From an uncultured Actinomycetota bacterium (lineage in GTDB: Bacteria; Actinomycetota; Humimicrobiia; Humimicrobiales; Humimicrobiaceae): 59,900 bases of DNA. The position numbers and the translations under genes were made by a program. The notes under the pieces were generated by a model. That model worked only from the letters and a program-made list of their open reading frames with translations, did not search any database and was not told where the DNA came from. The stretch is from NCBI GenBank assembly GCA_964426155.1, contig CAYROY010000107.1, positions 1 through 59,900 of the forward strand. The letters run 5' to 3'. The stretch's first letter is position 1. Every line of letters begins with the position of its first letter. Shown piece after piece: positions 1,263-38,257 of this stretch.

Positions 1263-1310
1263 AAAAAGCAAAGTGCTGCTTGCTAATTAAGTTGTGCTTT
1301 GCTTTTTCTT
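1263..1310 (+). terminator. Intrinsic terminator after the ABC ATPase gene
   Basis: AAAAAGCAAAGTGC (1263-1276) pairs with GTGCTTTGCTTTTT (1294-1307) across a 17-nt loop, followed by a T-rich run. An A-tract on the 5' side makes it potentially bidirectional. Confidence 0.7.
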
Positions 1311-1328
1311 CTTATAAAATTATATTAT

Positions 1329-2447
1329 ATGGGATCAAAATTCGATGTAATAATCTCAGGATGCGGACCTTCAGGCAGCCTTCTCGGGTATCTGTTATCC
1401 AGTGAAGGTATAAAAACACTTATAATAGAGAAAAAGAATTTTCCACGTTATAAAATATGTGCTGGAGGTCTTCAACACAGGGTGCTGACGCTAATTCCTT
1501 TTGATGTGAGCAGTGTCATAGAGAAAAGTTTGAAAAGAATATTTTTTTCATTTAGAGGCAAAGATTCTTTTTTAAGAGAGTATGATTCTTACCTTATCCA
1601 TACTGTGGATAGAAGAAAATTTGATTTTTTTATGGCAGAAATTGCCAGAGAAAATGGCTGTACAATAAGTTTCGGAGAAAATGTAAAAGATTACGAGCAA
1701 GAAACCAAATATCTTACAGTATTTACAGACAGAGGTAATTACAGGTCCAGTATACTTGTAGGTGCGGATGGAATAAGGGGAACAGTGCATAAGAATATTG
1801 TGTCCGGTCACAAAATAAAAAAGATACTGGGTTATGAAGTAGAAAGACTTTATAGCAGCAATGATAAAAAAAAGTATGGAAATACAGCAGGACTTGATTT
1901 TGGATGCGTAAAAATGGGGTACACATGGGCATTTCCCAAAAAAGATAAAATATCATATGGAATAGGTGGTCCCGAGAATATGGCACTTTCTATGAAAAGG
2001 TATTTTACCAGATTTCTTTATAGCAATAATGGCAGCTGTATAAAAGATAAGATAATGGCCCAGTGTATACCCATAAGGTCTAAGGATACCCCCTTATGCA
2101 AAGAAAGAATCCTCACAATCGGGGATGCTGCCTGTCTGGGTGACGGGTTTACGGGTGAGGGTCTTTTTAATGCATTTAGAAGTTCCCATCTTGCCCTGAG
2201 CAGCATAAAAAAAGCTCTTGCGTCCGCTGACTATTCTTTTAATGATTATTCAGAAGCTGTTCAGCAGGAAATATATAGCGACATTAAGATATCCCTTATT
2301 TTCTCAAGAATATTTTTTGCTTATCCTATGTTTTTCTATAAACTTTTAAAATCTAATGATAAGTTTTTTAACCTGTGCTGCCAGGTTTTAAGAGGTGAGA
2401 AAAGATATAGCCATATTTCAGGTAAGCTAAACCTATTCAGTAAATGA
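1329..2447 (+). CDS. Geranylgeranyl reductase family FAD-dependent oxidoreductase
   Basis: N-terminal dinucleotide fold DVIISGCGPSGS, then IIEKKNFPRYKICAGGL (the PR-K-x-C-GG pattern of the GGR family). Start moved from 1299 to ATG 1329 because 1299-1310 lies inside the upstream terminator. Confidence 0.6.
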   Translation: MGSKFDVIISGCGPSGSLLGYLLSSEGIKTLIIEKKNFPRYKICAGGLQHRVLTLIPFDVSSVIEKSLKRIFFSFRGKDSFLREYDSYLIHTVDRRKFDFFMAEIARENGCTISFGENVKDYEQETKYLTVFTDRGNYRSSILVGADGIRGTVHKNIVSGHKIKKILGYEVERLYSSNDKKKYGNTAGLDFGCVKMGYTWAFPKKDKISYGIGGPENMALSMKRYFTRFLYSNNGSCIKDKIMAQCIPIRSKDTPLCKERILTIGDAACLGDGFTGEGLFNAFRSSHLALSSIKKALASADYSFNDYSEAVQQEIYSDIKISLIFSRIFFAYPMFFYKLLKSNDKFFNLCCQVLRGEKRYSHISGKLNLFSK

Positions 2448-2515: not shown

Positions 2516-3313
2516 ATGTCGGAAAGCAAAAAAGAAACGATTATTGCTCAAATATCAGATATACATGTAGGAGAACAGCATTTTATACCGAGCCTTTTAA
2601 CCAGAGCCATAGATGAAATAAACGATCTTAATCCAGATATAGTAATCATAACAGGAGATCTGACTGCAAATGGTTTTAGAATGGAATATGAAACAGTAAG
2701 AAACTACCTGGCACCTATAAAATGTAAAAATCTGATTGTGCAACTTGGAAATCATGATTCAAGAAATGTAGGCTATCTGCATTTTGAAGAGCTTTTTGGA
2801 GAAAGATATACAACATTTAAAAATAATACAATAACGATTGTTGCTGCTGATTCGAGCGAACCTGATCTGGATAACGGGCAGATAGGCAGGGAGCACTATC
2901 AATGGATAAGTAGGGAGTTCAATGATTCTGAAAAGAATAGCTTCAAGATATTTGCTATGCACCATCACCTTGTATCGGTTCCCAATACCGGAAGGGAAAG
3001 AAATATTGTTAATGATGCCGGAGATGTCCTTGAGACAATAGTAGATGCCGGTGTGGATATGGTGCTTTGCGGGCATAAACACGTTCCTTATTTATGGCGC
3101 ATAGAGGATATGATGGTGGTCACGGCAGGTACTGTATCCTGCCTGAGGCTCAGGGGTGCAATTGAGCCAAGCTATAATATAATATACGTAAGAGAGAAGG
3201 ATATAGATATCTACAGAAGATATCCATTTGACAAAATTGAGAGAATAAAAGGAATAAAAAGATCGATCAGGAAGGCAAGACTCTGTGATAAGTTTATTAC
3301 AGAAAAAAGATAA
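2516..3313 (+). CDS. Calcineurin-like metallophosphoesterase
   Basis: Motifs DIHVG, GDLTANG, GNHD, MHHH and GHKH in canonical order. AAAGGAAA RBS upstream. Confidence 0.85.
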   Translation: MSESKKETIIAQISDIHVGEQHFIPSLLTRAIDEINDLNPDIVIITGDLTANGFRMEYETVRNYLAPIKCKNLIVQLGNHDSRNVGYLHFEELFGERYTTFKNNTITIVAADSSEPDLDNGQIGREHYQWISREFNDSEKNSFKIFAMHHHLVSVPNTGRERNIVNDAGDVLETIVDAGVDMVLCGHKHVPYLWRIEDMMVVTAGTVSCLRLRGAIEPSYNIIYVREKDIDIYRRYPFDKIERIKGIKRSIRKARLCDKFITEKR

Positions 3314-4649
3314 TAAAAATAAAAAACTTATAGCTCTGATAGACGGAGAACATTATCCTGAGGTTAACAGGGATGCTCTGGAATTTTTAAAAAATAGTTT
3401 CACAGGAACTTTTGAAGGAATTATTTTTTTGGGTGGTACAGAGAAACTTATCATAGATGATCTCGAAGGATATTTTAAAGAGAAGGTTTATGTTATAAAT
3501 GACCTTGACCGTGATTTCTGTACTGCTCTTAAATATTTCTCACCCGATATCGTATATGATCTGAGTGATGAACCGGTTGTCAATTACAGAATAAGAATGA
3601 AGATAGCTTCTTTCTGTATGGCAAGTGGAAGTAGTTATATGGGACCTGATTTTCTATTCAGTTATGAAGAAAGGAAAATTAAAATAGCAAAAAAGACCTT
3701 ATCCATTATAGGGACAGGCAAAAGGATAGGAAAAACTGCTGTAAGCTCATATATAGCGAGAATATTTTCCGAGGAGAATATCAATACAGCCATTATAGCA
3801 ATGGGAAGAGGCGGACCCTCAACACCACAGGTCATAAGGGGTGATGAAATCGACATTGATGCAGGATACCTGCTTGACCTTAACAAAAAGGGTTTTCACG
3901 CAAGTTCAGATTATATAGAGGATGCATTACTAAGTGAGGTAGTTACTATAGGTTGCAGGAGATGCGGGGGAGGATTTGCAGGTAAGATATTTATGACTAA
4001 TCTTGGTGAGGGTGCCAGGCTTGCAGAAAAACTTGATTCAGATCTTATTATTGTTGAAGGCAGCGGGGCCTCTATACCTGAAGTGGCTTCAGATAAAACT
4101 ATTTGTGTAATCGGCGCTTTCCAGGAGTGGGAAAGTCTGGTGGGGTATCTCGGTATTTATAGAATAATGCTGGCAGATATGATAATAATTACCATGTGTG
4201 AGGATCCTCCTGCAAAAAAGGAAAAAATAGAAATTTTGGTAGATAAGATTAAAAAATATAATCCAGGTGTAGATATAATAAAAACAGTTTTCAGACCCAA
4301 ACCCCTTACAAATGTAGAAGGGAAAAAAGTGTTTCTCGGAATGACTTCTCAGAAAATTACAGGGTCCAACATAACCGGCCATCTTGAAAGTGAATACGGT
4401 TGCAGAATAGTAAAGGCAAGTTTTAACCTTTCAAAACGAGAACTTTTAAAAAGAGATCTTAATGAAAGTCCGGATTTTGATATTATACTTACGGAATTAA
4501 AGGCTGCTGCTGTGGATGTACTTACAGAATATGCTTCTGAAAACAAAAAAGAGATATCATATATTGATAATATACTAGTAGTTATTGACAGAGAAAGGGA
4601 TTTTAAGAAGGATGTTATAAAATTAATAAAGGAGAAAAGCACCAGATGA
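3285..4649 (+). CDS. cpgS: Putative cyclic 2,3-diphosphoglycerate synthetase (cDPGS family)
   Basis: About 454 aa with LIDGEHYP near the N-terminus, P-loop-like IIGTGKRIGKTAV, MGRGGP, GCRRCGGG, EGSGASIP and LTELKAAAVDV. I recognise these from memory as the methanogen cDPG synthetase family; no search was run. GTG start overlaps the upstream gene by 29 nt. Confidence 0.65.
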   Translation: MISLLQKKDNKNKKLIALIDGEHYPEVNRDALEFLKNSFTGTFEGIIFLGGTEKLIIDDLEGYFKEKVYVINDLDRDFCTALKYFSPDIVYDLSDEPVVNYRIRMKIASFCMASGSSYMGPDFLFSYEERKIKIAKKTLSIIGTGKRIGKTAVSSYIARIFSEENINTAIIAMGRGGPSTPQVIRGDEIDIDAGYLLDLNKKGFHASSDYIEDALLSEVVTIGCRRCGGGFAGKIFMTNLGEGARLAEKLDSDLIIVEGSGASIPEVASDKTICVIGAFQEWESLVGYLGIYRIMLADMIIITMCEDPPAKKEKIEILVDKIKKYNPGVDIIKTVFRPKPLTNVEGKKVFLGMTSQKITGSNITGHLESEYGCRIVKASFNLSKRELLKRDLNESPDFDIILTELKAAAVDVLTEYASENKKEISYIDNILVVIDRERDFKKDVIKLIKEKSTR

Positions 4650-5599
4650 CCATAAAAGAAGAAGAAAACAAGCGGAACCCGGTAGTAATCACTGATAAAA
4701 GAATGGGACTTCCTTTCTCGAAAGGCATACTTGCTTCGTCTATTTCTGTTACGGGTATTGAGATAGTAATTGCACACAGGATAGCTTCTGAAATTCAGGA
4801 TTACTTTGAGGAAAATAATATAAGGTCAATAACTCTTGATGAACTTAGGTCGCTTGCTTTCAGGTTCATAAAAGAAGATTCTGGTATCGATAATGCAGAG
4901 AAATACCTTCTCTGGCAGTCTGTCGGGAAACTTCAAAAACCAACTATAATACTTCTGGGCGGTGCTACCGGTGTGGGTAAATCAACGGTGGCCACAATTA
5001 TTGCAAACCGCTTAAATATAACGAGAGTAGCTTCGACCGATGCGATAAGGGAGGTGATGAGAGCCTCAGTCTCTGAGAAATTAATAAGGCCCCTGCGCGG
5101 GTCTTCTTATAATGCATATAAAAATTTAACTCTCCCGCCTTCCGGAGTAGAACCTGTAATACTGGGATTCAGGGAACAGGTATGTGCTGTAAATGTAGGT
5201 ATCGAAGCCATTATAAAAAGGAGTGTTGTAGAAAAGACAGATATTGTTATTGAAGGTGCACATGTGGTCCCGGGATATCTGGACGTTTTGCAATACAAGG
5301 ATAAGGCGGTTATTATTCAAATGGTAGTATCAGTTCCAAATAAAAGTATACATAAGGAACATTTTACCAAGAGGACTGTTGAGACTCAGGGTTCAAGACC
5401 TATGCAGCGGTATATAAAAAATCTTGACCAGATCACTATAATAAGGAATTATCTGGAGGACCTCGCAGTCAGGAATAATGTAGAAATAATACAAAACTAT
5501 AATCTTGATAATACTGTAAAGCAGGCACTTGATATTATTTTCAAAAAAGTAAAAGATGAATTTGCGAGAATGGGTAAGGAATATTTTAAAAGCACCTGA
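4646..5599 (+). CDS. 2-phosphoglycerate kinase
   Basis: N-terminal ATP-cone-like segment (LPFSKGILASS...), P-loop LLGGATGVGKST, TDAIREVMR and GSSYNAY: the typical 2PGK-family pattern. ATGA start/stop overlap with the upstream gene. Confidence 0.75.
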   Translation: MTIKEEENKRNPVVITDKRMGLPFSKGILASSISVTGIEIVIAHRIASEIQDYFEENNIRSITLDELRSLAFRFIKEDSGIDNAEKYLLWQSVGKLQKPTIILLGGATGVGKSTVATIIANRLNITRVASTDAIREVMRASVSEKLIRPLRGSSYNAYKNLTLPPSGVEPVILGFREQVCAVNVGIEAIIKRSVVEKTDIVIEGAHVVPGYLDVLQYKDKAVIIQMVVSVPNKSIHKEHFTKRTVETQGSRPMQRYIKNLDQITIIRNYLEDLAVRNNVEIIQNYNLDNTVKQALDIIFKKVKDEFARMGKEYFKST

Positions 5600-5601
5600 T
5601 A

Positions 5602-6033
5602 TTAGTTGATGCTGACAGAAAAAGAAGTCTCTTCGGACTGCATATTATTATAATCAACAATTACTTTATAATCACCAGGATAGTATATGTTATTCCTTTT
5701 AAGAAGATATACACTTATCTTGCCGCTTCCATTATTTTTTATCTTAATCTTATCCTGCTGGATTACCCTGTATCCGGATCCCTTTTGATAAAGCCAGGTT
5801 ACATTTATATTTTCTCCAGTTTTTACATCTTTTATCGGTATTACAAGGTATACATCGGAGCTATCAGAATTAAAATCGGTAATTTTTAGATTTTCTCCCG
5901 AAACCTCATCGGTATTTATTGCATCGGAAAGATATATTTTCCCTATGAAGGGTTCTTCTTTAAGAGTTAAGAAAGCAACAGCTATAAGTATAATAGCACC
6001 TATAACTGCTATTATAATACTTGTCTTTTTCAT
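5602..6033 (-). CDS. Membrane-anchored hypothetical protein
   Basis: 143-aa ORF with an N-terminal anchor MKKTSIIIAVIGAIILIAVAFL and a beta-rich remainder. Convergent with 2PGK; the two stops are 2 nt apart. Confidence 0.6.
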   Translation of the reverse strand: MKKTSIIIAVIGAIILIAVAFLTLKEEPFIGKIYLSDAINTDEVSGENLKITDFNSDSSDVYLVIPIKDVKTGENINVTWLYQKGSGYRVIQQDKIKIKNNGSGKISVYLLKRNNIYYPGDYKVIVDYNNMQSEETSFSVSIN

Positions 6034-9393: not shown

Positions 9394-9450
9394 GATAATG
9401 AAATAGTTTTCCCATAATTTATATTAAAAATGGTCCGGGCAGGCTGTGAG

Positions 9451-9885
9451 ATGTTTTTAGGTGAGCATCACAGGACAATAGATAACAAAGGCAGGATATT
9501 CATTCCTGCTAAATTCAGGGAAGATTTAATAAAAGGGGTAATAATCACAAAAGGTTTTGATGAGAAATGCCTTTTTTTATTTTCAAGTGAAGGATGGAAA
9601 AAAATCCAGGACAGGATTATGGAGAACCCAATGGCAAAAAGGAATATACAGAGATTCTCAAGATGGTTTTTCGCTTCAGCGGCAATGGAAAACATCGACC
9701 AGCAGGGGAGAACCAGAATACCGCGAAATTTAATAGAGCATGCTGATTTGAAAAAAGATATAGTCCTTGTCGGTGTCTCAGACAGGGCGGAAATATGGTC
9801 AGAAGAAAACTGGAAAAAATATTATAATCAGGCCGAATCTCAGTTTACCGAGGATCAGGATTCATTTGAAGAACTGGGATTCTAA
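9451..9885 (+). CDS. mraZ: Transcriptional regulator MraZ
   Basis: Two MraZ/SpoVT-AbrB repeats with DNKGRIFIP and DQQGRTRIP. The canonical MFLGE N-terminus favours ATG 9451 over 9430. Confidence 0.9.
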   Translation: MFLGEHHRTIDNKGRIFIPAKFREDLIKGVIITKGFDEKCLFLFSSEGWKKIQDRIMENPMAKRNIQRFSRWFFASAAMENIDQQGRTRIPRNLIEHADLKKDIVLVGVSDRAEIWSEENWKKYYNQAESQFTEDQDSFEELGF

Positions 9886-9901
9886 CGTAAGTATTAAGTA
9901 G

Positions 9902-10861
9902 ATGGAATTGAAAAAATTTCATATTCCAGTATTACTTGATGAAGTATTAAAATATCTGGACCCAGAAGAAGATGATATAGTTTTTGATGGAACACTTGGC
10001 GGTGCAGGTCATACTGCAGCAATAATTAAAGCCATTGCCCCCACAGGCAAAGTAATTGGAGTAGATCTTAATAGCCAGACTTTAAGCACCGCCACCAGAA
10101 ACCTGAGTAATATGGCCGGTAATATTATTGCAGTAAATGATAACTTTGCAAATATTAAAAGTATTCTTAAAAAGCTCGGGATTCCATGGGTAAACGGTAT
10201 CCTACTTGATCTGGGACTGTCTACCTTTCTTATAGAGAAATCTGGGAAGGGGTTCAGCTATATGAGGGATGAAAAACTTGATATGAGATATTCTGACAGA
10301 CAGCAGCTGGATGCATATGAAGTAGTTAATAGTTATCCGGAAGATGAGCTTGTTGAAATTTTTAAGAAATACGGTGAAGAAAGATATTCTAAGTTAATTG
10401 CGAAAAATATAAAAAAGAGGAGCAGGGAGCATCCTATAGAGTCTACCGGTGAGCTGGTGGAAATAATCAGGGATTCAATACCCGGTAAATATTCTTCAAG
10501 AAGAGGCAACCCTGCAAAAAGGGTATTTCAGGCTATAAGGATCGAGGTCAACAGGGAACTTTATAATTTAGATATTGCTATTAAAGATGGCTTTGAGGTT
10601 TTAAGCAATGGAGGCAGGATGGTTATAATTTCCTACCATTCCCTGGAAGATAAACTGGTAAAGAAAAGATTTAAAGAATATTCCGGGATCTGTACCTGCC
10701 CTCCCGGTTTGCCGGTATGTAGATGTGGGGCAAAAAAAAGAGCAAAGATTCTGACAAAGAAGGCAGTATATCCTTCTGAGGATGAAATAAAAATAAATCC
10801 GAGATCCAGAAATGCAAGACTAAGGGCTTTAGAAAAGGAAAATGAAGATGAGAACCGCTGA
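9902..10861 (+). CDS. rsmH: 16S rRNA (cytosine1402-N4)-methyltransferase
   Basis: HIPVLLDEV, SAM-binding DGTLGGAGH, FQAIRIEVN, ISYHSLEDK. Confidence 0.95.
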   Translation: MELKKFHIPVLLDEVLKYLDPEEDDIVFDGTLGGAGHTAAIIKAIAPTGKVIGVDLNSQTLSTATRNLSNMAGNIIAVNDNFANIKSILKKLGIPWVNGILLDLGLSTFLIEKSGKGFSYMRDEKLDMRYSDRQQLDAYEVVNSYPEDELVEIFKKYGEERYSKLIAKNIKKRSREHPIESTGELVEIIRDSIPGKYSSRRGNPAKRVFQAIRIEVNRELYNLDIAIKDGFEVLSNGGRMVIISYHSLEDKLVKKRFKEYSGICTCPPGLPVCRCGAKKRAKILTKKAVYPSEDEIKINPRSRNARLRALEKENEDENR

Positions 10862-11375
10862 AGCAAGAAAACTAAAAAATACTTACAGTCCTGTGCTTTA
10901 TCTTGTATCGGGAGGTGACAGGGAAGATAATAAAAATGTACTTTATAACAATAGCGGGCTGTTTTATGTAATGATTATAGTAATACTGTTTGCCTGCATA
11001 GGTCTGCTTTTAAATATTTTCCTTAAGGTCCAGAATATAAATTATCAGAAGGATATTTTTAAACTTGGTGAGATGATATCAATAGAAGAGGATAGGACTG
11101 ATAGATTAAAACTTGAGATTTCTTCGCTGAGGGCACCTTCCAGGATTATTGAAACTGCGGAAAATGTACTGGGGATGCAGGCAAAAAAGAATCTTGAAGT
11201 ATTCTCTATATCAAAAGATGGAATAGAAAACAATGAGATGATATTCAATTATATCTCAAAGGAGGATATGCCATTGCCAGAAGTCAGGTATGACAATCTT
11301 CTTGGAACAATATATCATGTTCACGATTTAATACTTGTGGTATCGGAAAGTGTGCTGACGTTTTTTATACCATAA
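10842..11375 (+). CDS. ftsL: Cell division protein FtsL-like
   Basis: Single TM helix (FYVMIIVILFACIGLLLNIFL) followed by a coiled-coil segment, in the conserved position between rsmH and ftsI. Sequence-level identity is weak, as is usual for FtsL. Confidence 0.6.
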   Translation: MKMRTAEARKLKNTYSPVLYLVSGGDREDNKNVLYNNSGLFYVMIIVILFACIGLLLNIFLKVQNINYQKDIFKLGEMISIEEDRTDRLKLEISSLRAPSRIIETAENVLGMQAKKNLEVFSISKDGIENNEMIFNYISKEDMPLPEVRYDNLLGTIYHVHDLILVVSESVLTFFIP

Positions 11376-11391
11376 ATAGATTTGTCTTAAG

Positions 11392-13098
11392 ATGACAGGC
11401 GTAGAAAACCATTATAGAATAAGCAGGAAAAGAATATATTTCCTGTTTATTTTATTTTTAATAGCTTTCTCAATTATTACATATAGACTGGTGTCCATTC
11501 AATATCTTGATGCATCAAAATATCAAGAATTTGCCGACTACCAGCATATGGATGAATTCAAGCTTGATTCAAAAAGGGGAAAAATACTAGATAGGAATGG
11601 TAATGAGCTGGCAATCAGCCTGGTAGAAAAAACAGTATATGCAAATCCGCAGATGATAGAAGATCTGGAATATACAGTGGATGTAATATCAGATGCTCTT
11701 GATATAAATAGAGATGAACTTATGGAAAAGATATCAGATAAGTCCAAAGGATTTGTGTACCTAAAAAGAAAAATTGGTTCAGAAGAAGCTAATAAAATTG
11801 CTGAACTTAATCTCGAAGGTATTTATATAGAGAACGAGTGCAAAAGATATTATCCACAGGAGGAGCTTGCAGCTCCGGTTATAGGATTTACAGGTACGGA
11901 TGGCAACGGACTATACGGAATAGAATTAAAATATGAGAGTATACTACGCGGGGTAGACGGAAGAACAGAAGCGGAGAAAGATGTGTTCGGCAATATTATA
12001 CCTGAGAATATAAAGACATATATTGAACCTATAGATGGGGAAGATGTTATACTTACAATTGATTCTCAGATACAATTTATAGCTGAAAGAAGCCTGGCCG
12101 GCGTAGCAAAGGAGTATAATGCGCAATCTGCTATAGCAGTTGTAATGAATCCTGTAAATGGAGAAATACTGGCTATGGCATCTTACCCTGGTTTTGATGC
12201 CAATAATTATCTGGATTATGATGATGAATTATATAAAGTTGCAGGAGCATCATTCACTTACGAACCAGGATCGACTTTTAAGATAGTAAATGTTTCTTCA
12301 GCTCTCGAGAACGGTACTGTTACAGCTAATCAGGTTTTTAATCTTCCTCCATCTATTCAAGTGGGCGATAGAATAATAAGGGAGATATTCAGGACAGGTA
12401 ATATACAATACACCACAAAAGAGATAATAAAGCATTCAAGTAATGTAGGTGCCGTAGTACTGGCCATGAGCATGGGTGATAGACTTTACTGGGAAGGTAT
12501 TAAAAAATTCGGTTTCGGAGAGATTACAGGAGTCGAGCTCCCGGGTGAAGAAAGCGGAATAGTCCATGACTATAAAAGCTGGCCTGCTTCGACTATAGGT
12601 GCGCTTGCTATAGGCCAGAGTATTTCGGTCACCCCCCTCCAGCTCCTGAGAGCTGCATGCGTTATCGCAAATGATGGATATCTTATAAATCCTACTATAA
12701 TAAAAGAGGTAAGTCTGGGGAAGGTAAAGGATCCTGACCCAGAAAGTACTAGTCCTAAGCGGATCATAAGTGGAGAGACAGCAAGTTCTGTAAAGGATAT
12801 GATGCTTGCAGTAGTAGAGGATGGAACTGGTACCAGGGCCCAGATAGAAGATGTAAAAATTTGTGGAAAAACAGGAACTGCAGAAAAGGTGAACAGGAAT
12901 GGAACAGGCTACAGCGAGGGGAGAAGTATTACTTCTTTTATAGGCTTCGGCCCCTATGAAGACCCGAAGATAGCAGTAATAGTGGTAGTTGATGAACCAC
13001 AGGGTCCCGATAAAACTGTATGGGGAGGAACTGTGGCGGCGCCTGTTTTTAAAGAAATAATGGAATTTTCCCTGGAACGTATTAAAGTATTGAAATGA
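11392..13098 (+). CDS. ftsI: Penicillin-binding protein (FtsI/PBP2B-class transpeptidase)
   Basis: N-terminal TM anchor, PBP dimerisation domain, and transpeptidase motifs STFK, SSN and KTGT. Confidence 0.9.
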   Translation: MTGVENHYRISRKRIYFLFILFLIAFSIITYRLVSIQYLDASKYQEFADYQHMDEFKLDSKRGKILDRNGNELAISLVEKTVYANPQMIEDLEYTVDVISDALDINRDELMEKISDKSKGFVYLKRKIGSEEANKIAELNLEGIYIENECKRYYPQEELAAPVIGFTGTDGNGLYGIELKYESILRGVDGRTEAEKDVFGNIIPENIKTYIEPIDGEDVILTIDSQIQFIAERSLAGVAKEYNAQSAIAVVMNPVNGEILAMASYPGFDANNYLDYDDELYKVAGASFTYEPGSTFKIVNVSSALENGTVTANQVFNLPPSIQVGDRIIREIFRTGNIQYTTKEIIKHSSNVGAVVLAMSMGDRLYWEGIKKFGFGEITGVELPGEESGIVHDYKSWPASTIGALAIGQSISVTPLQLLRAACVIANDGYLINPTIIKEVSLGKVKDPDPESTSPKRIISGETASSVKDMMLAVVEDGTGTRAQIEDVKICGKTGTAEKVNRNGTGYSEGRSITSFIGFGPYEDPKIAVIVVVDEPQGPDKTVWGGTVAAPVFKEIMEFSLERIKVLK

Positions 13099-13140
13099 AT
13101 ATGTATAATTTAAGATGTATATGATTTGAATTGTTAATTA

Positions 13141-14643
13141 ATGTCAGAAAGTCAGCTGATGAGATTAAGTGAGATAATCAAGGGTGTAGATATTAAAGGT
13201 ATTTATGGCCATGAAGATATAGAGGTACTGGATATTTCTATAAATTCGAAAAACATCAATAAAGGCTATCTTTTCGCAGCAGTAAAAGGGTTCAGGTATG
13301 ACGGTCACGATTTTGTAAAAGAAGCAATAGGCAGGGGAGCAGTAGCCGTAATAACCAACAAAAGAATGGATGTCAGCTCTCATATTACACAGGTAATAGT
13401 CAAAGATACCAGATCTGTGCTTCCGCTGATAAGTAGGAATTTTTTTGGTGACCCATCTAAATCATTAAAAGTTATAGGTATAACTGGTACTAACGGAAAG
13501 ACGACTACATGCTATATTATAAACTCGATACTTAAGAGTGCCGGAGTAAAGACATCTATAATAACTACTTACAGATCATTTATAGGCAATAAAGAAATAA
13601 GATTTAGTAGAACCACACCTGAATCACTGGATCTGCAGAGATTCTTTGCTGAAAGCTTAAAAAGCGGTGTAAAGTTTGTGAGTATGGAAGTATCATCGCA
13701 CTCCATAGACCTCCACCGGGTTGATTATATAGATTTTGACTTTCTGGTATTTACTAATCTTTCCCAGGATCATCTAGATTATCACAAAACGATTGAAAAA
13801 TATTTTGAAGCAAAGTCCAGGATCTTTGATGAAAGAAACCGGAAGCTTTTTGGCAGGGGCAGAGCAATAATAAATATCGATGACAGTTATGGAAAAAGAA
13901 TATTTGATATTACCGGGTTGAAAAAGACATCCTTTTCTATAAATAATCCACTAGCTGATATAAGGGGTTATGACATATCAAATTCTATTTCCGGGATAGA
14001 TATGCTGGCAAAAATTAAAGATAAAAATATCAGGATAAAAACCTCTCTCTGCGGAGTATTCAATATATATAACATACTGGCTGCAGCAGGCACCTGTTTC
14101 GAGGCCGGAATTACTACCGGTAATATAATTTTGGGAATTGAAAATATGGAAGGCTTCGGCGGAAGGTTTGAAAGAATAGAATATGGCCGGGGTCCGACAG
14201 TAATAGTTGATTATGCACATACTCCGGATGGACTTAAAAATGTTCTTCAGACTGCCAGGAATATACTTTCAGATCCAGGCAGGCTTGTACTGGTTTTTGG
14301 CTGTGGAGGAGACCGGGATAAAAATAAAAGAAAAAAAATGGGGATCATATCTGCCAGACTTGCTGATTTTACAATAATAACATCTGATAATCCAAGATCG
14401 GAAGAACCTGATAGAATAATATCCATGATAGAGGAGGGTTTTAAAAAAGAAGGAGTAGACAGATATGTCAAAATAACGGACAGGAAAGAGGCAATATTCC
14501 GTGCAATCGATGATACAGCAGATGAGGATATCGTATTGATAGCAGGTAAGGGTCACGAAGATTACCAGGAGTTTGAGAACGGAAGAAGGATAGCATTCAG
14601 TGATTCAGAGACAGTCAGGGAATATTATGAAAATAAAAAATAA
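13141..14643 (+). CDS. murE: UDP-N-acetylmuramoyl-L-alanyl-D-glutamate--2,6-diaminopimelate ligase
   Basis: Mur ligase P-loop GITGTNGKTTT. The DNPR motif (ITSDNPRSE) indicates the meso-DAP-adding type. Confidence 0.9.
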   Translation: MSESQLMRLSEIIKGVDIKGIYGHEDIEVLDISINSKNINKGYLFAAVKGFRYDGHDFVKEAIGRGAVAVITNKRMDVSSHITQVIVKDTRSVLPLISRNFFGDPSKSLKVIGITGTNGKTTTCYIINSILKSAGVKTSIITTYRSFIGNKEIRFSRTTPESLDLQRFFAESLKSGVKFVSMEVSSHSIDLHRVDYIDFDFLVFTNLSQDHLDYHKTIEKYFEAKSRIFDERNRKLFGRGRAIINIDDSYGKRIFDITGLKKTSFSINNPLADIRGYDISNSISGIDMLAKIKDKNIRIKTSLCGVFNIYNILAAAGTCFEAGITTGNIILGIENMEGFGGRFERIEYGRGPTVIVDYAHTPDGLKNVLQTARNILSDPGRLVLVFGCGGDRDKNKRKKMGIISARLADFTIITSDNPRSEEPDRIISMIEEGFKKEGVDRYVKITDRKEAIFRAIDDTADEDIVLIAGKGHEDYQEFENGRRIAFSDSETVREYYENKK

Positions 14644-16090
14644 AATAATACTTGGCCTGGTCTCTGAGTGGACCGGCTCATTAATAAGATCCGGAGAAGA
14701 CAGATCCTGCATAGAAAGCATATCCACTGATACCAGGACAATTAGAAGAGGTGATTTTTTTATTCCCATTAAAGGTGAAAATTTTAATGGCCATGATTTT
14801 ATAGAAGAAGCTTTAAGAAGAGGGGCAGGTGGCTTTGTCTACGAAAAAGAAAGGAGGTCAGAATATTTAAAACTTTTGGAAAGTATCAGTATAAACAATA
14901 AGGCAGGCTATATTATACTGGAAACTGATGATACTATGGATTTTGTGAAGATGCTTGCATCAAATTATTTGATGCAGTTCAATGCAAGTATTATAGGTAT
15001 AACTGGAAGTGTGGGAAAGACTACTACAAAAAATATGGTTGCAGCTGTTCTGTCCAAAAAATTTAAAACAGTATCGACGCCTGGAAATTTTAATACAGAA
15101 ATAGGAATATCAGAAAGCATTTTTAATGTCGGACCTGAAACAGAATATTTTGTGGCTGAACTGGGAATGAGAGGTAAAAATCAGATAGGTCCGCTTGCCG
15201 AAATGATAAATGTGGAGATAGCTGCAATTACTGCTGTTGGTGATTCTCATATGAAATTTTTCAAAAACCAGAGGGAGATAGCTGAAGCCAAGGCTGAAAT
15301 AGCCAGGCCCTTAAGGAGGAACGGAGGCAAACTTTTTCTGAATGCTGATGACAGAATGGCAGCATATATCAAAGAAATTACTGGAGTTGAAACGATAGAA
15401 TTTGGTGCAGATAACTTCATAGATTATAACTTTATAGATACGGGGATTGATAACAGGGGAAGATTCAGTTTTGATCTTTTTAAGAAAGAAAAAAAGATTT
15501 GCTCAATAAAATCAGGGGTTCCAGGATACCACAACCTTTATAATGAATGCCTTGCTGCTGCAATATGCCATTATATTGGTATGGATGTATGTATGATTAA
15601 AGAAGGTATAGAAAATGCAAAAATAGAAGAACACAGGATGCAGATAGTCGACTGCGGCAATTTTACTATTATCGATGATTGCTATAACTCAAGTCCGGTG
15701 TCTGTAAAAAGTGCTATAGATACTCTCCTGCAGATATCAATAAGTAGCAATGGAAGACCTGTAGTGATACTGGGAGACATGCTTGAACTGGGAAAATCTG
15801 CTGCCGAATTACATTATAAGGTCGGTAAATATTGCGCCGAGCGGGGTATTGAGACTTTAATCGCTGTTGGAAAACTGGCAAAAAATTTTGTTAGAGGCTT
15901 CGAAGATTTTGAGAATAAAAAAATTGGCGGAAAGTATTTTTATTTTAATAAGAAAAATGATCTATATAGACATAATAGTTCTCTGGTAAAACCGGGAGAC
16001 ATAATCCTTGTAAAAGGTTCAAGGGCAGATAGGATGGAAGATGTTATCTCATTTTTTAAAAGGCAGTCGGCCAGCAGCCGGACTTTGTAA
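14627..16090 (+). CDS. murF: UDP-N-acetylmuramoyl-tripeptide--D-alanyl-D-alanine ligase
   Basis: Mur ligase fold with GITGSVGKTTTK, in dcw position. ATG 14627 is preferred over GTG 14600 and overlaps the murE stop by 17 nt. Confidence 0.9.
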   Translation: MKIKNKIILGLVSEWTGSLIRSGEDRSCIESISTDTRTIRRGDFFIPIKGENFNGHDFIEEALRRGAGGFVYEKERRSEYLKLLESISINNKAGYIILETDDTMDFVKMLASNYLMQFNASIIGITGSVGKTTTKNMVAAVLSKKFKTVSTPGNFNTEIGISESIFNVGPETEYFVAELGMRGKNQIGPLAEMINVEIAAITAVGDSHMKFFKNQREIAEAKAEIARPLRRNGGKLFLNADDRMAAYIKEITGVETIEFGADNFIDYNFIDTGIDNRGRFSFDLFKKEKKICSIKSGVPGYHNLYNECLAAAICHYIGMDVCMIKEGIENAKIEEHRMQIVDCGNFTIIDDCYNSSPVSVKSAIDTLLQISISSNGRPVVILGDMLELGKSAAELHYKVGKYCAERGIETLIAVGKLAKNFVRGFEDFENKKIGGKYFYFNKKNDLYRHNSSLVKPGDIILVKGSRADRMEDVISFFKRQSASSRTL

Positions 16091-16138
16091 TCCGTAGTGG
16101 GTTAGTAGTATATTTTAAAGACAAAAAGGAGTTTTTTA

Positions 16139-17152
16139 ATGAACTGGATTTTTTTATCGATAACCACCGGGGGGTTTCTATCCCTTTTGCTTACTCCTTT
16201 ATTTATTAGATTTCAGAAAAGAAAAAAAATGGGGGAAAAGATAAGGATTGATGGACCCAGGACACATTCTGCAAAGGCCGGTACACCTACGATGGGAGGA
16301 ATAATATTTGTTTTTTCTGCTATCATAGCTTTTATAATAGTCAGCCTTATTAAATACTATCGTTATAATGATTACAGTATCGAAGGAATATTCATAACTT
16401 CCATACTGGTACTATGCAGCTTACTGGGTTTTATAGATGATTATATGGCACTAAAAAAGCAGCGTTCTCTGGGACTGAGAGGATGGGTAAAAATATTTTT
16501 ACTCGTTATTATATGTGTTTATTTTATATTATTTGCACGTTTTATACTTAATATTGGGACTTATATTAATATTCCCTTCACAGGTATAAAAATAGAACTG
16601 GGAAACTGGTATTATATAATAGTAGCTCTGATAGTGATATCCACCACTAATGCCGTTAACCTGACTGATGGGCTAGATGGCCTGGCAGCCGGTTCATCCT
16701 CGATAGTACTTGCAGTTTTCTGTTTCATAGCCTTTCTGGAATGGACAATAGGCGAAAGAGCATATGCGATAGATATTGCAGTAATAGCAGGCAGTACTCT
16801 TGCGGCAAGTACCGGATTTTTATGGTGGAATACAGCACCGGCAGAGATATTTATGGGTGATACCGGTTCTTTCGGTCTGGGGGGTCTTATAGCAGCAATA
16901 GCTATAGTCCTGAAACAGGAAATTTTATTGATAGCTATCGGCGGAATTTTTGTAGTGGAAGCACTATCTGTAATAATTCAGGTTCTCTGGTTTAAGGCAA
17001 CAGGGAAACGTGTTTTTAAAATGGCTCCAATACATCATCATTTCGAACTTATGGGTTGGCCGGAAATAAAAGTCATTATAAGGTTCTGGCTTGTATGTTC
17101 AATATTCGCAGTCACGGGTTTCTTTATATATTATTTAAAATTCATAGACTAA
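16139..17152 (+). CDS. mraY: Phospho-N-acetylmuramoyl-pentapeptide transferase
   Basis: Polytopic membrane protein with GTPTMGG, NAVNLTDGLDGLA, MGDTGS and APIHHHFE. Confidence 0.95.
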   Translation: MNWIFLSITTGGFLSLLLTPLFIRFQKRKKMGEKIRIDGPRTHSAKAGTPTMGGIIFVFSAIIAFIIVSLIKYYRYNDYSIEGIFITSILVLCSLLGFIDDYMALKKQRSLGLRGWVKIFLLVIICVYFILFARFILNIGTYINIPFTGIKIELGNWYYIIVALIVISTTNAVNLTDGLDGLAAGSSSIVLAVFCFIAFLEWTIGERAYAIDIAVIAGSTLAASTGFLWWNTAPAEIFMGDTGSFGLGGLIAAIAIVLKQEILLIAIGGIFVVEALSVIIQVLWFKATGKRVFKMAPIHHHFELMGWPEIKVIIRFWLVCSIFAVTGFFIYYLKFID

Positions 17153-17162
17153 TTACTTTTTT

Positions 17163-18620
17163 GTGTCAGATATGAAGGAAACAGATATTATTTTTAACAA
17201 CATAAAAATAATGATAATCGGTATGGGAATAACCGGGACTGCAGTTGCAAAAAAAATGGCAGAGCTGGGAAACCATGTAATAGCATTTGACAATAATACG
17301 AGTCTTAATAGGAGTTCATTATATTCAGCAATTGAAAAAAATGGTGAATCAGATTATGAAATATTACTATCAGAAAAGGATAATTTAGATGTCTCGATTC
17401 TAAAAAATGTGGATTTAGTAATTGCAAGTCCAGGGGTTCCTTCAGATAATGTAATGCTTTCAGCTGCACTTGAAAGAGGAATACCGGTGTGGGATGAACT
17501 TGAGTTATCATGGCAGCTTATGGGGGCAGAGCAGAGGAGAAACACAATAGCAGTAACTGGCACAAATGGTAAAACTACGGTCGTAAATCTGATAGGGAAA
17601 TTGATGGAAAAATCGAATATGAAAGTGGTTTTATGTGGAAACATCGGTTCTCCTGTTATCGAAACATTAAAGATAGATAAGGAAGAAAGAAGAGCATTAA
17701 GCGATGAAAATATAAGAGTTATAGAAACCAGCAGCTTTCAGTTGGAAAGGACATTTAGCTTTAAGCCCGGAATCGGAATACTTCTAAATATTACCAGTGA
17801 TCATATAGATAGACATAAATGTATAGAAGAATATGCCAGAACGAAGTTCAGATTGTTTAAAAACCAGGATTCAAAAGACTTTTTGGTGGTAAATATGGAT
17901 GATGAGATTATAGCGGAAAAGATAACCGGTTCTGTTAATAAGCATAAAAGTCCCTTTGTAGTTAAGTACGGCATTAAAAAGGTGAAATCTAATAATCTCT
18001 GGCTGGAAGATGATCATATATATTATGATTTTCTCTCTAAAAGTGGGAGGATCAATATAGAGGGATCCCAACTTAAAGGGATGCATAATGTATCCAATAT
18101 GATGGCTTCTTCAGTACCACTTCTGTTATTAGAGGTAGATCCAGAAAATATCAGTGATTCAATAAAAAATTTTAAACCTCTTAATCACAGATTGGAATAT
18201 ATTGGAGATGTGGAAGGTATACGCTGTATAAATGACTCTAAATCAACTAACCCTGATTCTACGGCAGCGGCACTTAAAGATTTTACAAAAGAAGTTACTT
18301 TGATAATGGGTGGGAAAGATAAAAATATGGATTTTGATATACTGACCGGTTTAATGGATTCTTCGGTAAATAATCTTATACTTATAGGTGAGTCTGCAGA
18401 TAGAATCGAAAAGACATTTAGAAGAGATGGTAATACCTACGGTATATATAAATGTAAAGACCTCGAAGAGGCAGTAGAACTTGGATTTAAGTTGACACAC
18501 CCTGGAGACGTACTATTACTCTCACCAGGATGTGCAAGCATGGATATGTTCAGGAATTACAAGGATAGAGGCAACAGATTTAAAAAAATTGTAATGTCTT
18601 TTATTAAAAACAATGGATAA
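17163..18620 (+). CDS. murD: UDP-N-acetylmuramoylalanine--D-glutamate ligase
   Basis: Rossmann-like N-terminus (IIGMGITG) and Mur ligase P-loop VTGTNGKTT. The start could be GTG 17163 or ATG 17172. Confidence 0.9.
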   Translation: MSDMKETDIIFNNIKIMIIGMGITGTAVAKKMAELGNHVIAFDNNTSLNRSSLYSAIEKNGESDYEILLSEKDNLDVSILKNVDLVIASPGVPSDNVMLSAALERGIPVWDELELSWQLMGAEQRRNTIAVTGTNGKTTVVNLIGKLMEKSNMKVVLCGNIGSPVIETLKIDKEERRALSDENIRVIETSSFQLERTFSFKPGIGILLNITSDHIDRHKCIEEYARTKFRLFKNQDSKDFLVVNMDDEIIAEKITGSVNKHKSPFVVKYGIKKVKSNNLWLEDDHIYYDFLSKSGRINIEGSQLKGMHNVSNMMASSVPLLLLEVDPENISDSIKNFKPLNHRLEYIGDVEGIRCINDSKSTNPDSTAAALKDFTKEVTLIMGGKDKNMDFDILTGLMDSSVNNLILIGESADRIEKTFRRDGNTYGIYKCKDLEEAVELGFKLTHPGDVLLLSPGCASMDMFRNYKDRGNRFKKIVMSFIKNNG

Positions 18621-19794
18621 ACAGGTAAAAAGACACAGAATATTCAGCATAGGTATTGAGTATTATTTTATTTTTATTATTACTCTTATACTCTCCATAA
18701 TAGGTATAGTAATGATATCAAGTGCTTCTATATCTGTGGGGGAAAGATACTTCAATGATTCTTACTGGTTTATACGCAGACAGTTGATCTGGTGGGTTAT
18801 ATCTTTTCCGTGTTTTTTGATTGTTTCAAGAATTGATTATAAAAAAATACGAAGGTTTTCAAATGTAATTATGCTCATAGTAATAGGTCTTCTTGCTCTT
18901 GTTCTGATACCAGGTTTTAGCGTTGAATCTGGAGGAGCCAGGAGATGGCTAGATCTATGGTTTTTTAGTCCACAACCATCAGAATTTGCAAAAATTGCGT
19001 TAATATTATTTTTTTCTGATTACATAAATAGGGAATATATAAAAGATGGCAGATTGAAAAGAATACTCTGGCCCCCATTTTTCGTGCTATGCCTTTCAAC
19101 AGTACTGATTTTTCTGGAACCCGATCTCAGTTCAGCTGTAGTATTGTGGGTTATTATATTCATAGTGATGTTTGCAGGAGGGGTAAGGTTAAAACATATT
19201 GTAGGAACCGGTGTTATAGGAGTAATTGTTACCGTAGGGTATCTTTTTCTGGAAGATTACAGGAGGGAAAGGCTAATGGCTTTTTTTAACGGCTCCTCAG
19301 TTGAAAGTGAGGGAGTAAATTTTCAGATCAGCCAATCACTTATAGCACTGGGCTCAGGGAAATTAATGGGTCTTGGCCTTGGTAACAGTGTCCAGAAATA
19401 TTCATATCTTCCAGAAGCGCAAACTGATTTTATATTTGCAATTATTGGTGAAGAACTTGGTCTGGTGGGCACAATGCTTGTAGTGATTTTATTTATATTA
19501 TTTTTCTTTTTTGGTATAAAGGTCTGCCTCAAAACCGAAGATAGCTACGGAAGAGCACTTGCTGCTGGACTTACAGGCATGATAATTGTACCAGCAATAA
19601 TCAATATATCAGTAGTGACTGGTTTAGTCCCGGTTACCGGGCTGACTCTTCCGTTTATCAGTTTTGGCGGTTCTTCTCTACTTCTCAATATGATAGGAGT
19701 AGGAATATTACTGAATATATCGAGACAGAACCTTCTTGTAAGAAGAATAAAAAAAGATATAAATAGTAAGTTAAAAAATGAACAGAAATATTAG
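18613..19794 (+). CDS. ftsW: Peptidoglycan glycosyltransferase FtsW (SEDS family)
   Basis: About 10-TM SEDS protein with QPSEFAKI, PEAQTDFIFA and LPFISFGGSS, in dcw position. Confidence 0.9.
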   Translation: MDKQVKRHRIFSIGIEYYFIFIITLILSIIGIVMISSASISVGERYFNDSYWFIRRQLIWWVISFPCFLIVSRIDYKKIRRFSNVIMLIVIGLLALVLIPGFSVESGGARRWLDLWFFSPQPSEFAKIALILFFSDYINREYIKDGRLKRILWPPFFVLCLSTVLIFLEPDLSSAVVLWVIIFIVMFAGGVRLKHIVGTGVIGVIVTVGYLFLEDYRRERLMAFFNGSSVESEGVNFQISQSLIALGSGKLMGLGLGNSVQKYSYLPEAQTDFIFAIIGEELGLVGTMLVVILFILFFFFGIKVCLKTEDSYGRALAAGLTGMIIVPAIINISVVTGLVPVTGLTLPFISFGGSSLLLNMIGVGILLNISRQNLLVRRIKKDINSKLKNEQKY

Positions 19795-20929
19795 AAGGGT
19801 ACTTATTACTGCAGGTGGAACGGGAGGTCATATCTACCCGGCGATAGCTTTGATAGAGTATATAAATAAAAATTATCCGGATACCAGCATTACTTTTATC
19901 GGTTCTGAAAGAGGGGCCGGAAAAAGGTTGATTGAAAGCATGGGAATCGGATTCTTTACCGTAAGAGCAAGAGGCCTTTCAGGGGAAAGAAAATTTTTTA
20001 GAAAGCTGAGTACTTATATATTATTTTTGATTTATCTCGTACCGGGTTTTATTAAATCATTTAGAATTTTAAGAGGGAAAAAGATAGAGATTGTTCTGGG
20101 AATGGGAGGGTATATTTGCGCACCAGTAATAATGGCTGCAATGGTAAGAAGAATACCTTTTTCGCTTCACGAACAAAATTATATCCCCGGCAGACTAAAC
20201 AGGCTGTCTTCCAGGTGGGCGAAATATTTTTTTATAAGCTTTGAAGATACCAGGAAATATATAGGTGTCAGAAATAAAAATATAGTATTTTCCGGAAATC
20301 CTGTTAGAGAGTCCATAAAAAAAATTGCAAGCCTGACACCATGCTATGAAAAGTGGGGGTTGAGAGAAGAAAGATTTACCTTAACAGTTTTAGGAGGAAG
20401 TCAGGGCTCTGAAAGGATTAATAATGTCATTATACAATTGTATGATTCTATTAGAAATGATTCCATGATACAAATATTCCTTATATCAGGTTCAAGATTT
20501 TATGATAATATAATTGAAAAGGTAAAAAAAATAAGAAGAGATAAGGATAGTGCTATTTTGAAAGTTTTTCCTTATGTAGATGAAATTGAGGAAATATACC
20601 GGATTACAGATCTATTAATTGCAAGAGCAGGGGCAAGCACTGTATTTGAAACTGCAACGGCGGTTATACCTTCAATTTTTATACCCTATCCGTTTGCAAT
20701 AGATAATCATCAATTTTATAATGCCCGCTATCTGGAGCAGAAAGGTGCGGCGGTGCTTATAGAGGAAGAGAAGCTAAATTCTGATCTTTTAGCAGAGAAT
20801 ATTAAAAATATCAGGGCAGACGGTATGAAAATGCATACCGAGATCAAAAATAAGTTGATGGAAATAAAGTTAAAGGACAGCCAGCGGATAATCTTAGCTG
20901 GATTGCTGGAGGATTATGTTGAACAATAA
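19778..20929 (+). CDS. murG: UDP-N-acetylglucosamine--N-acetylmuramyl-(pentapeptide) pyrophosphoryl-undecaprenol GlcNAc transferase
   Basis: GT28 N-terminal G-loop TAGGTGGHIYPA and C-terminal domain ...ARAGAST..E. Confidence 0.9.
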   Translation: MNRNIRRVLITAGGTGGHIYPAIALIEYINKNYPDTSITFIGSERGAGKRLIESMGIGFFTVRARGLSGERKFFRKLSTYILFLIYLVPGFIKSFRILRGKKIEIVLGMGGYICAPVIMAAMVRRIPFSLHEQNYIPGRLNRLSSRWAKYFFISFEDTRKYIGVRNKNIVFSGNPVRESIKKIASLTPCYEKWGLREERFTLTVLGGSQGSERINNVIIQLYDSIRNDSMIQIFLISGSRFYDNIIEKVKKIRRDKDSAILKVFPYVDEIEEIYRITDLLIARAGASTVFETATAVIPSIFIPYPFAIDNHQFYNARYLEQKGAAVLIEEEKLNSDLLAENIKNIRADGMKMHTEIKNKLMEIKLKDSQRIILAGLLEDYVEQ

Positions 20930-23196: not shown

Positions 23197-23201
23197 GAAA
23201 T

Positions 23202-24185: not shown

Positions 24186-24186
24186 T

Positions 24187-24969: not shown

Positions 24970-24981
24970 TTGGAGGTTTTT

Positions 24982-26226: not shown

Positions 26227-26240
26227 GGGGAGGTAGGAAG

Positions 26241-38183: not shown

Positions 38184-38257
38184 GCGGGCTTAGTATAGAG
38201 GTAGTACGTGAGCTTCCCAAGCTCAAAAGGCGGGTTCAATTCCCGTAGCCCGCTCCA
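38184..38257 (+). tRNA. tRNA-Gly (anticodon CCC)
   Basis: Cloverleaf folded by hand: acceptor GCGGGCT/AGCCCGC, D arm GTAT-AGAGGTA-GTAC, anticodon arm TGAGC-TTCCCAA-GCTCA, 4-nt variable loop, T arm GCGGG-TTCAATT-CCCGT, discriminator U, encoded CCA. Confidence 0.9.

Follow-up and report, generated by a model that had tools for sequence, protein, structure and literature searches.

The stretch of DNA analysed here, referred to as the window, comprises 59,900 nt of contig CAYROY010000107.1 (assembly GCA_964426155.1) and comes from the metagenome-assembled genome (MAG) of an uncultivated, sediment-type, Humimicrobiaceae-like member of the Actinomycetota that has a complete dcw cluster. Near its start are three consecutive genes on the forward strand that are predicted to synthesize, and perhaps to turn over, cyclic 2,3-diphosphoglycerate (cDPG). 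First in the cassette is the gene for a 265 aa metallophosphoesterase (2516-3313), recognised by its match to PF00149. The second encodes a 454 aa homologue of the cDPG synthetase (cDPGS), matching PDB 8ork/8oru, and has a GTG start (3285-4649). The third, with an ATG start (4646-5599), encodes a 317 aa protein of the 2-phosphoglycerate kinase (2PGK) family, matching NCBIfam NF003259. By their coordinates, the phosphoesterase and cDPGS genes overlap by 29 nt (3285-3313), from the GTG start of the latter to the end of the former. The cDPGS and 2PGK genes share an ATGA stop/start overlap that can be read from the sequence (4646-4649), an arrangement indicative of translational coupling. Shine-Dalgarno-like purine runs precede both of the latter starts, AGGAAGG at 3269-3275 for cDPGS and AGGAG at 4630-4634 for 2PGK. 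The GTG start is supported by conservation of the N-terminus from residue 3 onwards in relatives of 67-74% identity. The cDPGS and 2PGK genes are intact and probably functional.

A preliminary description of this DNA, made from its letters and translations, had picked out the two overlapping open reading frames and a series of motifs. These are all present: LIDGEHYP, GTGKRIGKT, GCRRCGGG, EGSGASIP, and LTELKAAAVDV in the 454 aa protein, and PFSKGIL, GGATGVGKST, and TDAIREVMR in the 317 aa protein. It had also proposed that they encode a complete two-step pathway to cDPG. Genes for both enzymes are indeed there; the phosphoesterase gene was overlooked, and the conserved unit is one of three genes rather than two.

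The 454 aa protein matches the Methanothermus fervidus cDPGS structures PDB 8ork/8oru over its full length (E 1.7e-120, 405.7 bits, residues 11-440 on 3-440), with 46.6% identity over 429 aligned positions. A second deposited structure, PDB 9sxb, is matched with an E value of 2.9e-98. The family-specific Pfam domain CpgS_N (PF27272.1) has been precomputed on the window sequence and on all 120 of its listed homologues. In the M. fervidus structure the N-terminal domain is without fold relatives and makes both the dimer and the substrate site (PMC10690619). Scans of the 454 aa protein with the Pfam and NCBIfam libraries returned only sub-threshold matches to P-loop families (DUF1611, AAA_26, KamB). 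Since these libraries contain no cDPGS model, such matches are not evidence against membership of the family.

The residues that contact ligands in the M. fervidus enzyme have been described (PMC10690619). The substrate, 2,3-diphosphoglycerate (2,3-DPG), is contacted by E45 and K46 from the partner protomer and by K145 and R146; the P-loop contributes K149 and T150, with the Mg2+ ion held by T150 and D208; and the nucleotide is contacted by E305, T353, and E404, with K406 acting as a charge shield. The window protein has an equivalent for every one of these, at E53, K54, K146, R147, K150, T151, D209, E306, T354, E404, and K406, which answers the call in the preliminary description for a check of the substrate-binding residues. 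The named contacts are kept in 10 out of 10 members of the window clade and most are near-invariant across 66 other representatives of the family, where E53 is found in 60, K54 in 62, and D209 in 63. The K, R, G, K, and T of the Walker A motif are invariant in all 76 aligned members (10 from the clade and 66 others). The residue that the structural report calls P335 is F335 in the numbering of the deposited chain, while the nearby P337 is kept as window P338, and which residue is meant is ambiguous.

The window protein is therefore close in many respects to its M. fervidus counterpart. It is of the same length class and has the same two-domain layout, CpgS_N followed by a P-loop kinase-fold domain. 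The Walker A motif GTGKRIGKT (G143-T151, encoded at 3711-3737) is identical to M. fervidus G142-T150, all of the named ATP, Mg, and 2,3-DPG contacts are kept, and retention of the E/K pair that acts in trans between protomers would imply the same dimeric active site. The differences are of context. The host of the window gene is a bacterium and not an established hyperthermophile, and the gene is in an operon with genes for 2PGK and a phosphoesterase, neither of which is adjacent in the sampled methanogen-type loci. By full-length homology and the retention of every ligand-contacting residue, the 454 aa protein is a member of the cDPGS family proper and not a distant paralogue such as the arginine synthetase ArcE.

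The 436 aa protein of PDB 9SXB is itself entitled a cyclic 2,3-diphosphoglycerate synthetase and is 63% identical to the cDPGS of a Thermococcus-type locus (L019), with which it groups at 100% bootstrap. No paper citing this structure was found in the searchable literature.

The 317 aa protein matches the NCBIfam model for 2PGK, NF003259, from end to end (E 1.9e-88, 296.8 bits, residues 11-308 on 4-298 of the 306 model positions) and NF008994 with 286.6 bits, in agreement with the function first suggested for it and with the label that the Joint Genome Institute (JGI) has given to exactly this protein, 2-phosphoglycerate kinase. Its P-loop, GGATGVGKST (G105-T114, encoded at 4958-4987), is evident in the sequence, and the P-loop kinase profiles centre on residues 97-141. 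The idea of an ATP-cone-like N-terminus is weakly supported. The region concerned (residues 22-92, encoded at 4709-4921) matches PF03477 with 18.3 bits (E 0.0035), short of the 25.8 bits required for gathering; there are, however, precomputed PF03477 matches on some close homologues of the kinase and on the neighbouring gene in Thermococcus. The M. fervidus 2PGK was cloned by Lehmacher and Hensel in 1994 (cited in PMC1224877). With the methanogen 2PGK (NF003259/PRK04220) the window kinase shares the end-to-end profile match, the P-loop, the coupling to cDPGS, and perhaps an ATP-cone-like N-terminus, and it differs in scoring under the 343-bit equivalog threshold of the model. It is a protein of the 2PGK family that, on this profile evidence, is probably an orthologue, rather than a certified equivalog.

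The metallophosphoesterase matches PF00149 well above the cut-off of 21.5 bits (E 3.2e-18, 67.3 bits). Among solved structures it is closest to Rv0805, GpdQ, and Icc/CpdA, class-III phosphodiesterases of cyclic nucleotides or glycerophosphodiesters, although the relationship is distant (E 4e-6 to 4e-5). With these it shares the calcineurin-like motifs DxH, GD, GNHD, H, and GHxH and a similar size, about 265 aa. Among 50 orthologues the dimetal motifs D15, H17, G47, D48, G78-N79-H80-D81, H149-151, G186, H187, and H189 show conservation of 95% or more. The window subfamily differs from Rv0805, GpdQ, and Icc/CpdA, beyond its distance from them (E about 1e-5 to 1e-6), in having its own invariant Arg and Lys residues and in being specifically associated with cDPGS in genomes. 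R83, K144, R160, E161, R162, R213, and Y220 are invariant in the same 50 orthologues, and R83, K144, R160, R162, and R213, being specific to the subfamily, would suit a polyanionic substrate. The overlap with the cDPGS gene, of 10-29 nt, is retained in most related MAG loci, with a short gap instead in one of them (L009). From this genomic association the phosphoesterase is a candidate hydrolase of cDPG or 2,3-DPG. The one cDPG hydrolase described, from M. thermautotrophicus, is membrane-bound and inhibited by K+ and Pi, with no gene reported (PMC1224877). The window phosphoesterase is without an obvious membrane segment and would therefore not be the same form of enzyme. Within the clade the phosphoesterase is better conserved than cDPGS, at about 84% compared with about 68%.

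Taken together, these genes would run a short pathway from lower glycolysis. The kinase would convert 2-phosphoglycerate (2-PG) and ATP to 2,3-DPG, and the synthetase would use a second ATP to close 2,3-DPG into the cyclic pyrophosphate cDPG, releasing ADP and Pi. If the chemistry is that of M. fervidus, the gamma-phosphate would be transferred to the 2-phosphate, which would then be attacked by the 3-phosphate with release of Pi. The phosphoesterase may open cDPG or dephosphorylate 2,3-DPG, and so provide for turnover. The two M. fervidus enzymes alone make cDPG both in vitro and in vivo (PMC10690619). Support for the pathway in the window comes from homology, from conserved residues for catalysis and substrate binding, and from the linkage and synteny of the genes, and it is from these that we infer cDPG to be the product. 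It is quite likely that the locus is a chromosomal, vertically inherited, three-gene operon for phosphoesterase, cDPGS, and 2PGK that gives this Humimicrobiaceae-like actinobacterium the capacity for cDPG synthesis. The cDPG would serve as an anionic compatible solute, as a reserve of carbon, phosphate, and energy, or as both, and not specifically as the thermoprotectant of a hyperthermophile.

The organization of the cassette was compared across lineages by scanning metagenomes using a profile built on 46 diverse cDPGS sequences, supplemented by targeted contig look-ups, which gave 102 loci in 35 lineages (at 65% identity). Among the 33 lineages with enough flanking DNA, in a sample biased toward sequences resembling the window cDPGS, a 2PGK homologue adjoins cDPGS in 25, including Thermococcus and an Asgard archaeon, an orthologue of the phosphoesterase does so in 23, and both do so in 21. 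The phosphoesterase orthologues of loci L015 and L017 are 50% (E 5e-95) and 48% identical, respectively. At Cloacimonadota-type and Asgard-type loci the phosphoesterase is downstream of 2PGK, as a tandem-duplicated fusion of about 500 aa with 32-33% identity. In the methanogen-type group (25 loci, with 68% identity to M. fervidus) neither 2PGK nor phosphoesterase is next to cDPGS.

In the window lineage the order is geranylgeranyl-reductase-like gene, phosphoesterase, cDPGS, 2PGK, a convergent small gene, FmdB, XseAB, and MraZ-RsmH-dcw, and this order is held down to 53-58% cDPGS identity. Elsewhere the surroundings differ. Other Actinomycetota-like lineages (L093 3158-9049, L015, L017, L022) have the cassette near genes for transaldolase/FSA or a GlpX fructose-bisphosphatase (FBPase), followed by Rho, L31, and RF1. 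A high-GC lineage has the order phosphoesterase-cDPGS-GlpX FBPase-Rho with no adjacent 2PGK, and immediately upstream a gene for a phosphonate/phosphate-type binding protein. At Bipolaricaulota-type loci a cofactor-independent phosphoglycerate mutase gene follows cDPGS in place of 2PGK, and several Actinomycetota-type loci also have an archaeal-type phosphoglycerate mutase gene 1-3 kb upstream (L014 5001-7908; also L070, L080, and L092). The phosphoglycerate mutase, transaldolase/FSA, and GlpX FBPase neighbours would tie the module to lower glycolysis and gluconeogenesis, which fits earlier work on cDPG (PMC1224877). At the Thermococcus paralvinellae-type locus (L019 3467-7171), cDPGS-2PGK is directly downstream of a glycosyltransferase gene of the mannosylglycerate synthase type (PF21969 MGS_GT), such that the genes for two different anionic compatible solutes are adjacent.

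It is clear that the family is not restricted to a few organisms. With the window cDPGS as query, 4,531 proteins were found at E <= 1e-5 among the candidates scored, and an exhaustive search of 50%-identity representatives gave 169 clusters at E <= 1e-30, of which about 65 are full length. As assembled from cluster names, the taxonomic breadth of the family takes in Candidatus Bipolaricaulota/Acetothermia, Cloacimonadota, other Actinomycetota, Thermococcus paralvinellae, and the Asgard Candidatus Borrarchaeum. A search of genome contigs found nine close loci in Actinomycetota MAGs, including Candidatus Humimicrobiaceae. The impression given by the preliminary description, that such genes are a rarity in bacteria, does not hold, as many of these more than 4,500 relatives are bacterial and both window proteins are already labelled by NCBI or JGI. 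An identical cDPGS protein is present in NCBI, a JGI cluster-mate is labelled cyclic 2,3-diphosphoglycerate synthase, and most members of the family have been named cDPGS by one or the other. The window protein is one of these automatically annotated bacterial '2,3-diphosphoglycerate synthetases' from MAGs of Actinomycetota, Candidatus Humimicrobiaceae, Bipolaricaulota, and Cloacimonadota. Database annotation names the gene; it omits the conserved phosphoesterase partner and a physiological interpretation.

In neighbour-joining (NJ) trees with 200 bootstraps, whose deep backbone is unresolved, the window clade is monophyletic in 200 of 200 replicates. The clade of M. fervidus, where 'methanogen-type' denotes members 59-68% identical to it, is separately monophyletic at 100%. 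One 26-taxon clade reached 100% after midpoint rooting, a value that was disregarded as a probable artefact of the rooting. The window clade is not nested within the M. fervidus/methanogen clade, has a purely archaeal sister group in only 49 of 200 replicates, and is closest in these trees to other bacterial lineages that share its gene order. In GC, GC3, and codon usage the three cassette genes deviate by no more than 1.4 standard deviations (sd) from the window's other 33 large genes. The interpretation made at the outset is supported in part: the functional assignment stands as far as sequence can show; the idea of methanogen-type genes acquired between domains is overstated. Nesting among methanogens and recent import are not seen, and recent horizontal transfer was rejected on the basis of host-like composition, lineage-wide synteny, and the position in the trees. 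Given the deep bacterial branch, this composition, and this synteny, any inter-domain transfer would have to be ancient. Such an ancient transfer somewhere in the cDPGS family is likely, and no direction is assigned to it.

Several other explanations of the locus need to be weighed, and the first concerns the chemistry of its proteins. The cDPGS superfamily holds a paralogue with a different reaction, ArcE (TK2200 of Thermococcus kodakarensis), a recognised distant relative that interconverts arginine, ADP, and Pi with citrulline, NH3, and ATP, and for which cDPGS has been used as an outgroup (PMC11032458). Were the 454 aa protein a diverged paralogue, whether an ArcE-like arginine synthetase or another ADP-forming ligase, and the kinase one that acts on some other phospho-acid, no cDPG would be made. 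ArcE does belong to the same broad P-loop superfamily and is ADP-forming, and the kinase falls under the equivalog cut-off in a family that also holds mevalonate-3-phosphate 5-kinase. However, the similarity between ArcE and cDPGS has been called 'low' (PMC11032458), as against 46.6% full-length identity between the window protein and cDPGS, and this places the window protein on the cDPGS side. The 2,3-DPG contacts E45, K46, K145, and R146 and the Mg ligand D208 (M. fervidus numbering) are all kept; the kinase scores 297 bits to 2PGK compared with only 84.5 bits to the mevalonate-3-phosphate 5-kinase model; and the neighbourhood has no arc genes (ornithine carbamoyltransferase, carbamate kinase), cDPGS being coupled to 2PGK instead. 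An ArcE-type function was rejected on residue conservation and identity to cDPGS, with the separation from TK2200 taken from its published description. The paralogous clade that the preliminary description had allowed for is consequently not where this protein falls, and a cassette that makes no cDPG for this reason seems very improbable. There are, nonetheless, points that weigh against cDPG synthesis by the operon. The kinase, at 296.8 bits, is below the 343-bit NF003259 cut-off, its family takes in kinases of other substrates, and no solved 2PGK structure was found for a comparison at residue level. The searchable literature yielded no biochemical or metabolite evidence that any bacterium contains cDPG. 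A composition index suggests a growth temperature of about 55 C but is confounded by AT-richness. The physiological role of cDPG in this host is something that we purely infer.

The other explanations accept the pathway and concern its origin and use. One possibility is that a (hyper)thermophilic methanogen was the recent donor of the genes and that they serve in thermoprotection. By a small margin, archaeal sequences are the nearest ones outside the clade (M. fervidus at 46.6% and 9sxb at 44.0%, compared with 39-43% for others, mostly unlabelled), although composition may account for this small edge of the low-GC archaea. The value that extrapolates to about 55 C is an IVYWREL index of 0.416; the (E+K)/(Q+H) ratio is 4.9, and Humimicrobiia have been reported from heated Guaymas subsurface, among other sites. 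Against a recent gain are the absence of methanogen nesting, with a purely archaeal sister in just 49 of the 200 bootstraps, the host-like composition of the cassette (GC, GC3, and codon usage), and the place beside the dcw cluster that is kept throughout the lineage. The window gene order is also common to other bacterial lineages, whereas methanogen-type cDPGS lacks an adjacent 2PGK or phosphoesterase. As for thermoprotection, papers mentioning Humimicrobiia deal mostly with non-thermal settings (marine and lake sediments, euxinic water, salt marsh, hypersaline mats), and cDPG is also present in the mesophile Methanobrevibacter smithii (PMC1224877). A recent, thermoprotective acquisition is therefore improbable. 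An alternative closer to the operon as proposed here is that the pathway runs and that cDPG is mainly a rapidly cycled store of phosphate, carbon, and energy, drawn on through the phosphoesterase, reversal of cDPGS, or both, and not a bulk compatible solute. Turnover of cDPG is rapid in M. thermautotrophicus, where NaCl does not affect the cDPG level and the compound is regarded as a reserve of carbon and phosphate (PMC1224877), and the M. fervidus cDPGS is reversible, yielding ATP from cDPG, ADP, and Pi (PMC1224877). A hydrolase-type gene alongside the synthetic genes in 23 of the 33 lineages, and the phosphonate/phosphate-type binding protein gene immediately upstream in one lineage, would agree with this. 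Sequence does not separate storage from osmoprotection, however, and the two roles are not mutually exclusive; a mainly storage function is possible but doubtful. For the operon in general, the habitats, the occurrence of cDPG in a mesophilic methanogen, its behaviour as a reserve, and the reversibility of the synthetase make an osmolyte role, a storage role, or both seem more likely than thermoprotection in the manner of hyperthermophiles.

The remainder of the window confirms that the host is a bacterium with a full dcw cluster, as had been stated. Genes from MraZ to FtsZ extend across 9430-27410. MraZ and RsmH (9430-10861) were identified from their translations and from PF02381 and PF01795 matches on the syntenic genes of related loci, while PBP/FtsI, MurE, MurF, MraY, MurD, FtsW, MurG, MurC, MurB, Ddl, FtsQ, FtsA, and FtsZ (11392-27410) were identified using Pfam. 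Scans for promoters and terminators were uninformative in this AT-rich DNA, with 29 promoter-like sequences compared with 20.6 expected and 4 terminator-like sequences compared with 2.9 expected.

Upstream of the cassette is a gene of the geranylgeranyl-reductase family (1299-2447, forward strand; TIGR02032, 184.5 bits, above the cut-off). It is whole in the window and in relatives that are more remote. Among the closest ones, with 73-89% cDPGS identity, only fragments align (L001 4768-5157, L002 4832-5164, and L004 4986-5150), and this suggests that the gene is decaying there and has no functional tie to the cassette. Downstream, a convergent open reading frame of 143 aa (5602-6033, reverse strand) ends 3 nt past the 2PGK stop. 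It has a hydrophobic N-terminus and no family match, and its position is kept across the clade while its sequence diverges fast (30-85% identity). Further along, the window's sole tRNA (38184-38254) is followed directly by two successive genes of about 1,080 aa each (38572-44953, forward strand), overlapping by 95 nt, with UvrD-type helicase domains and a C-terminal PD-(D/E)XK nuclease, which are AddAB/AdnAB-like. A gene for an MnmA-type tRNA 2-thiouridylase (46205-47707, reverse strand) encodes an additional domain at the N-terminus that is NifU_N-like (PF01592, E 3.2e-5, residues 9-114).

In the primary literature of 2023, cDPG and its synthetase were placed only in hyperthermophilic methanogens (PMC10690619), and recent primary papers still describe the enzyme as methanogen-specific. 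There have been earlier genomic inferences of cDPG in non-methanogenic archaea, namely ammonia oxidisers and Pyrococcus yayanosii; among searchable papers, none was found that reports or discusses cDPG in Bacteria. With known enzymes and thousands of bacterial copies that already carry automatic annotation, the system is under-studied rather than unknown. The additions made here are a broad distribution among bacteria, arguments against a recent transfer, and a phosphoesterase partner that is conserved. Because the gene identifications are already in public annotation, an advance would come from experiments and not from the sequence observation.

Intact cDPGS genes with conserved residues, mostly paired with 2PGK, are stable in the chromosomes of several bacterial phyla, and most of the papers in which the host class is mentioned describe non-thermal habitats. 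It is tentatively suggested that cDPG is a widespread anionic solute or phosphate-energy reserve of uncultivated anaerobic Bacteria (Humimicrobiia, other Actinomycetota, Cloacimonadota, and Bipolaricaulota) and of non-methanogenic Archaea, with a metabolism encoded by a portable three-gene cassette in which the phosphoesterase would be a cDPG hydrolase or 2,3-DPG phosphatase. If these bacteria do make cDPG, mesophile-derived enzymes would be available for cDPG biotechnology, which is now pursued with the M. fervidus enzymes (PMC12136491), and the conserved phosphoesterase would be a concrete candidate for the degradative step. The accepted role of cDPG as a thermoprotectant would then need to shift toward osmoprotection or the storage of carbon, phosphate, and energy.

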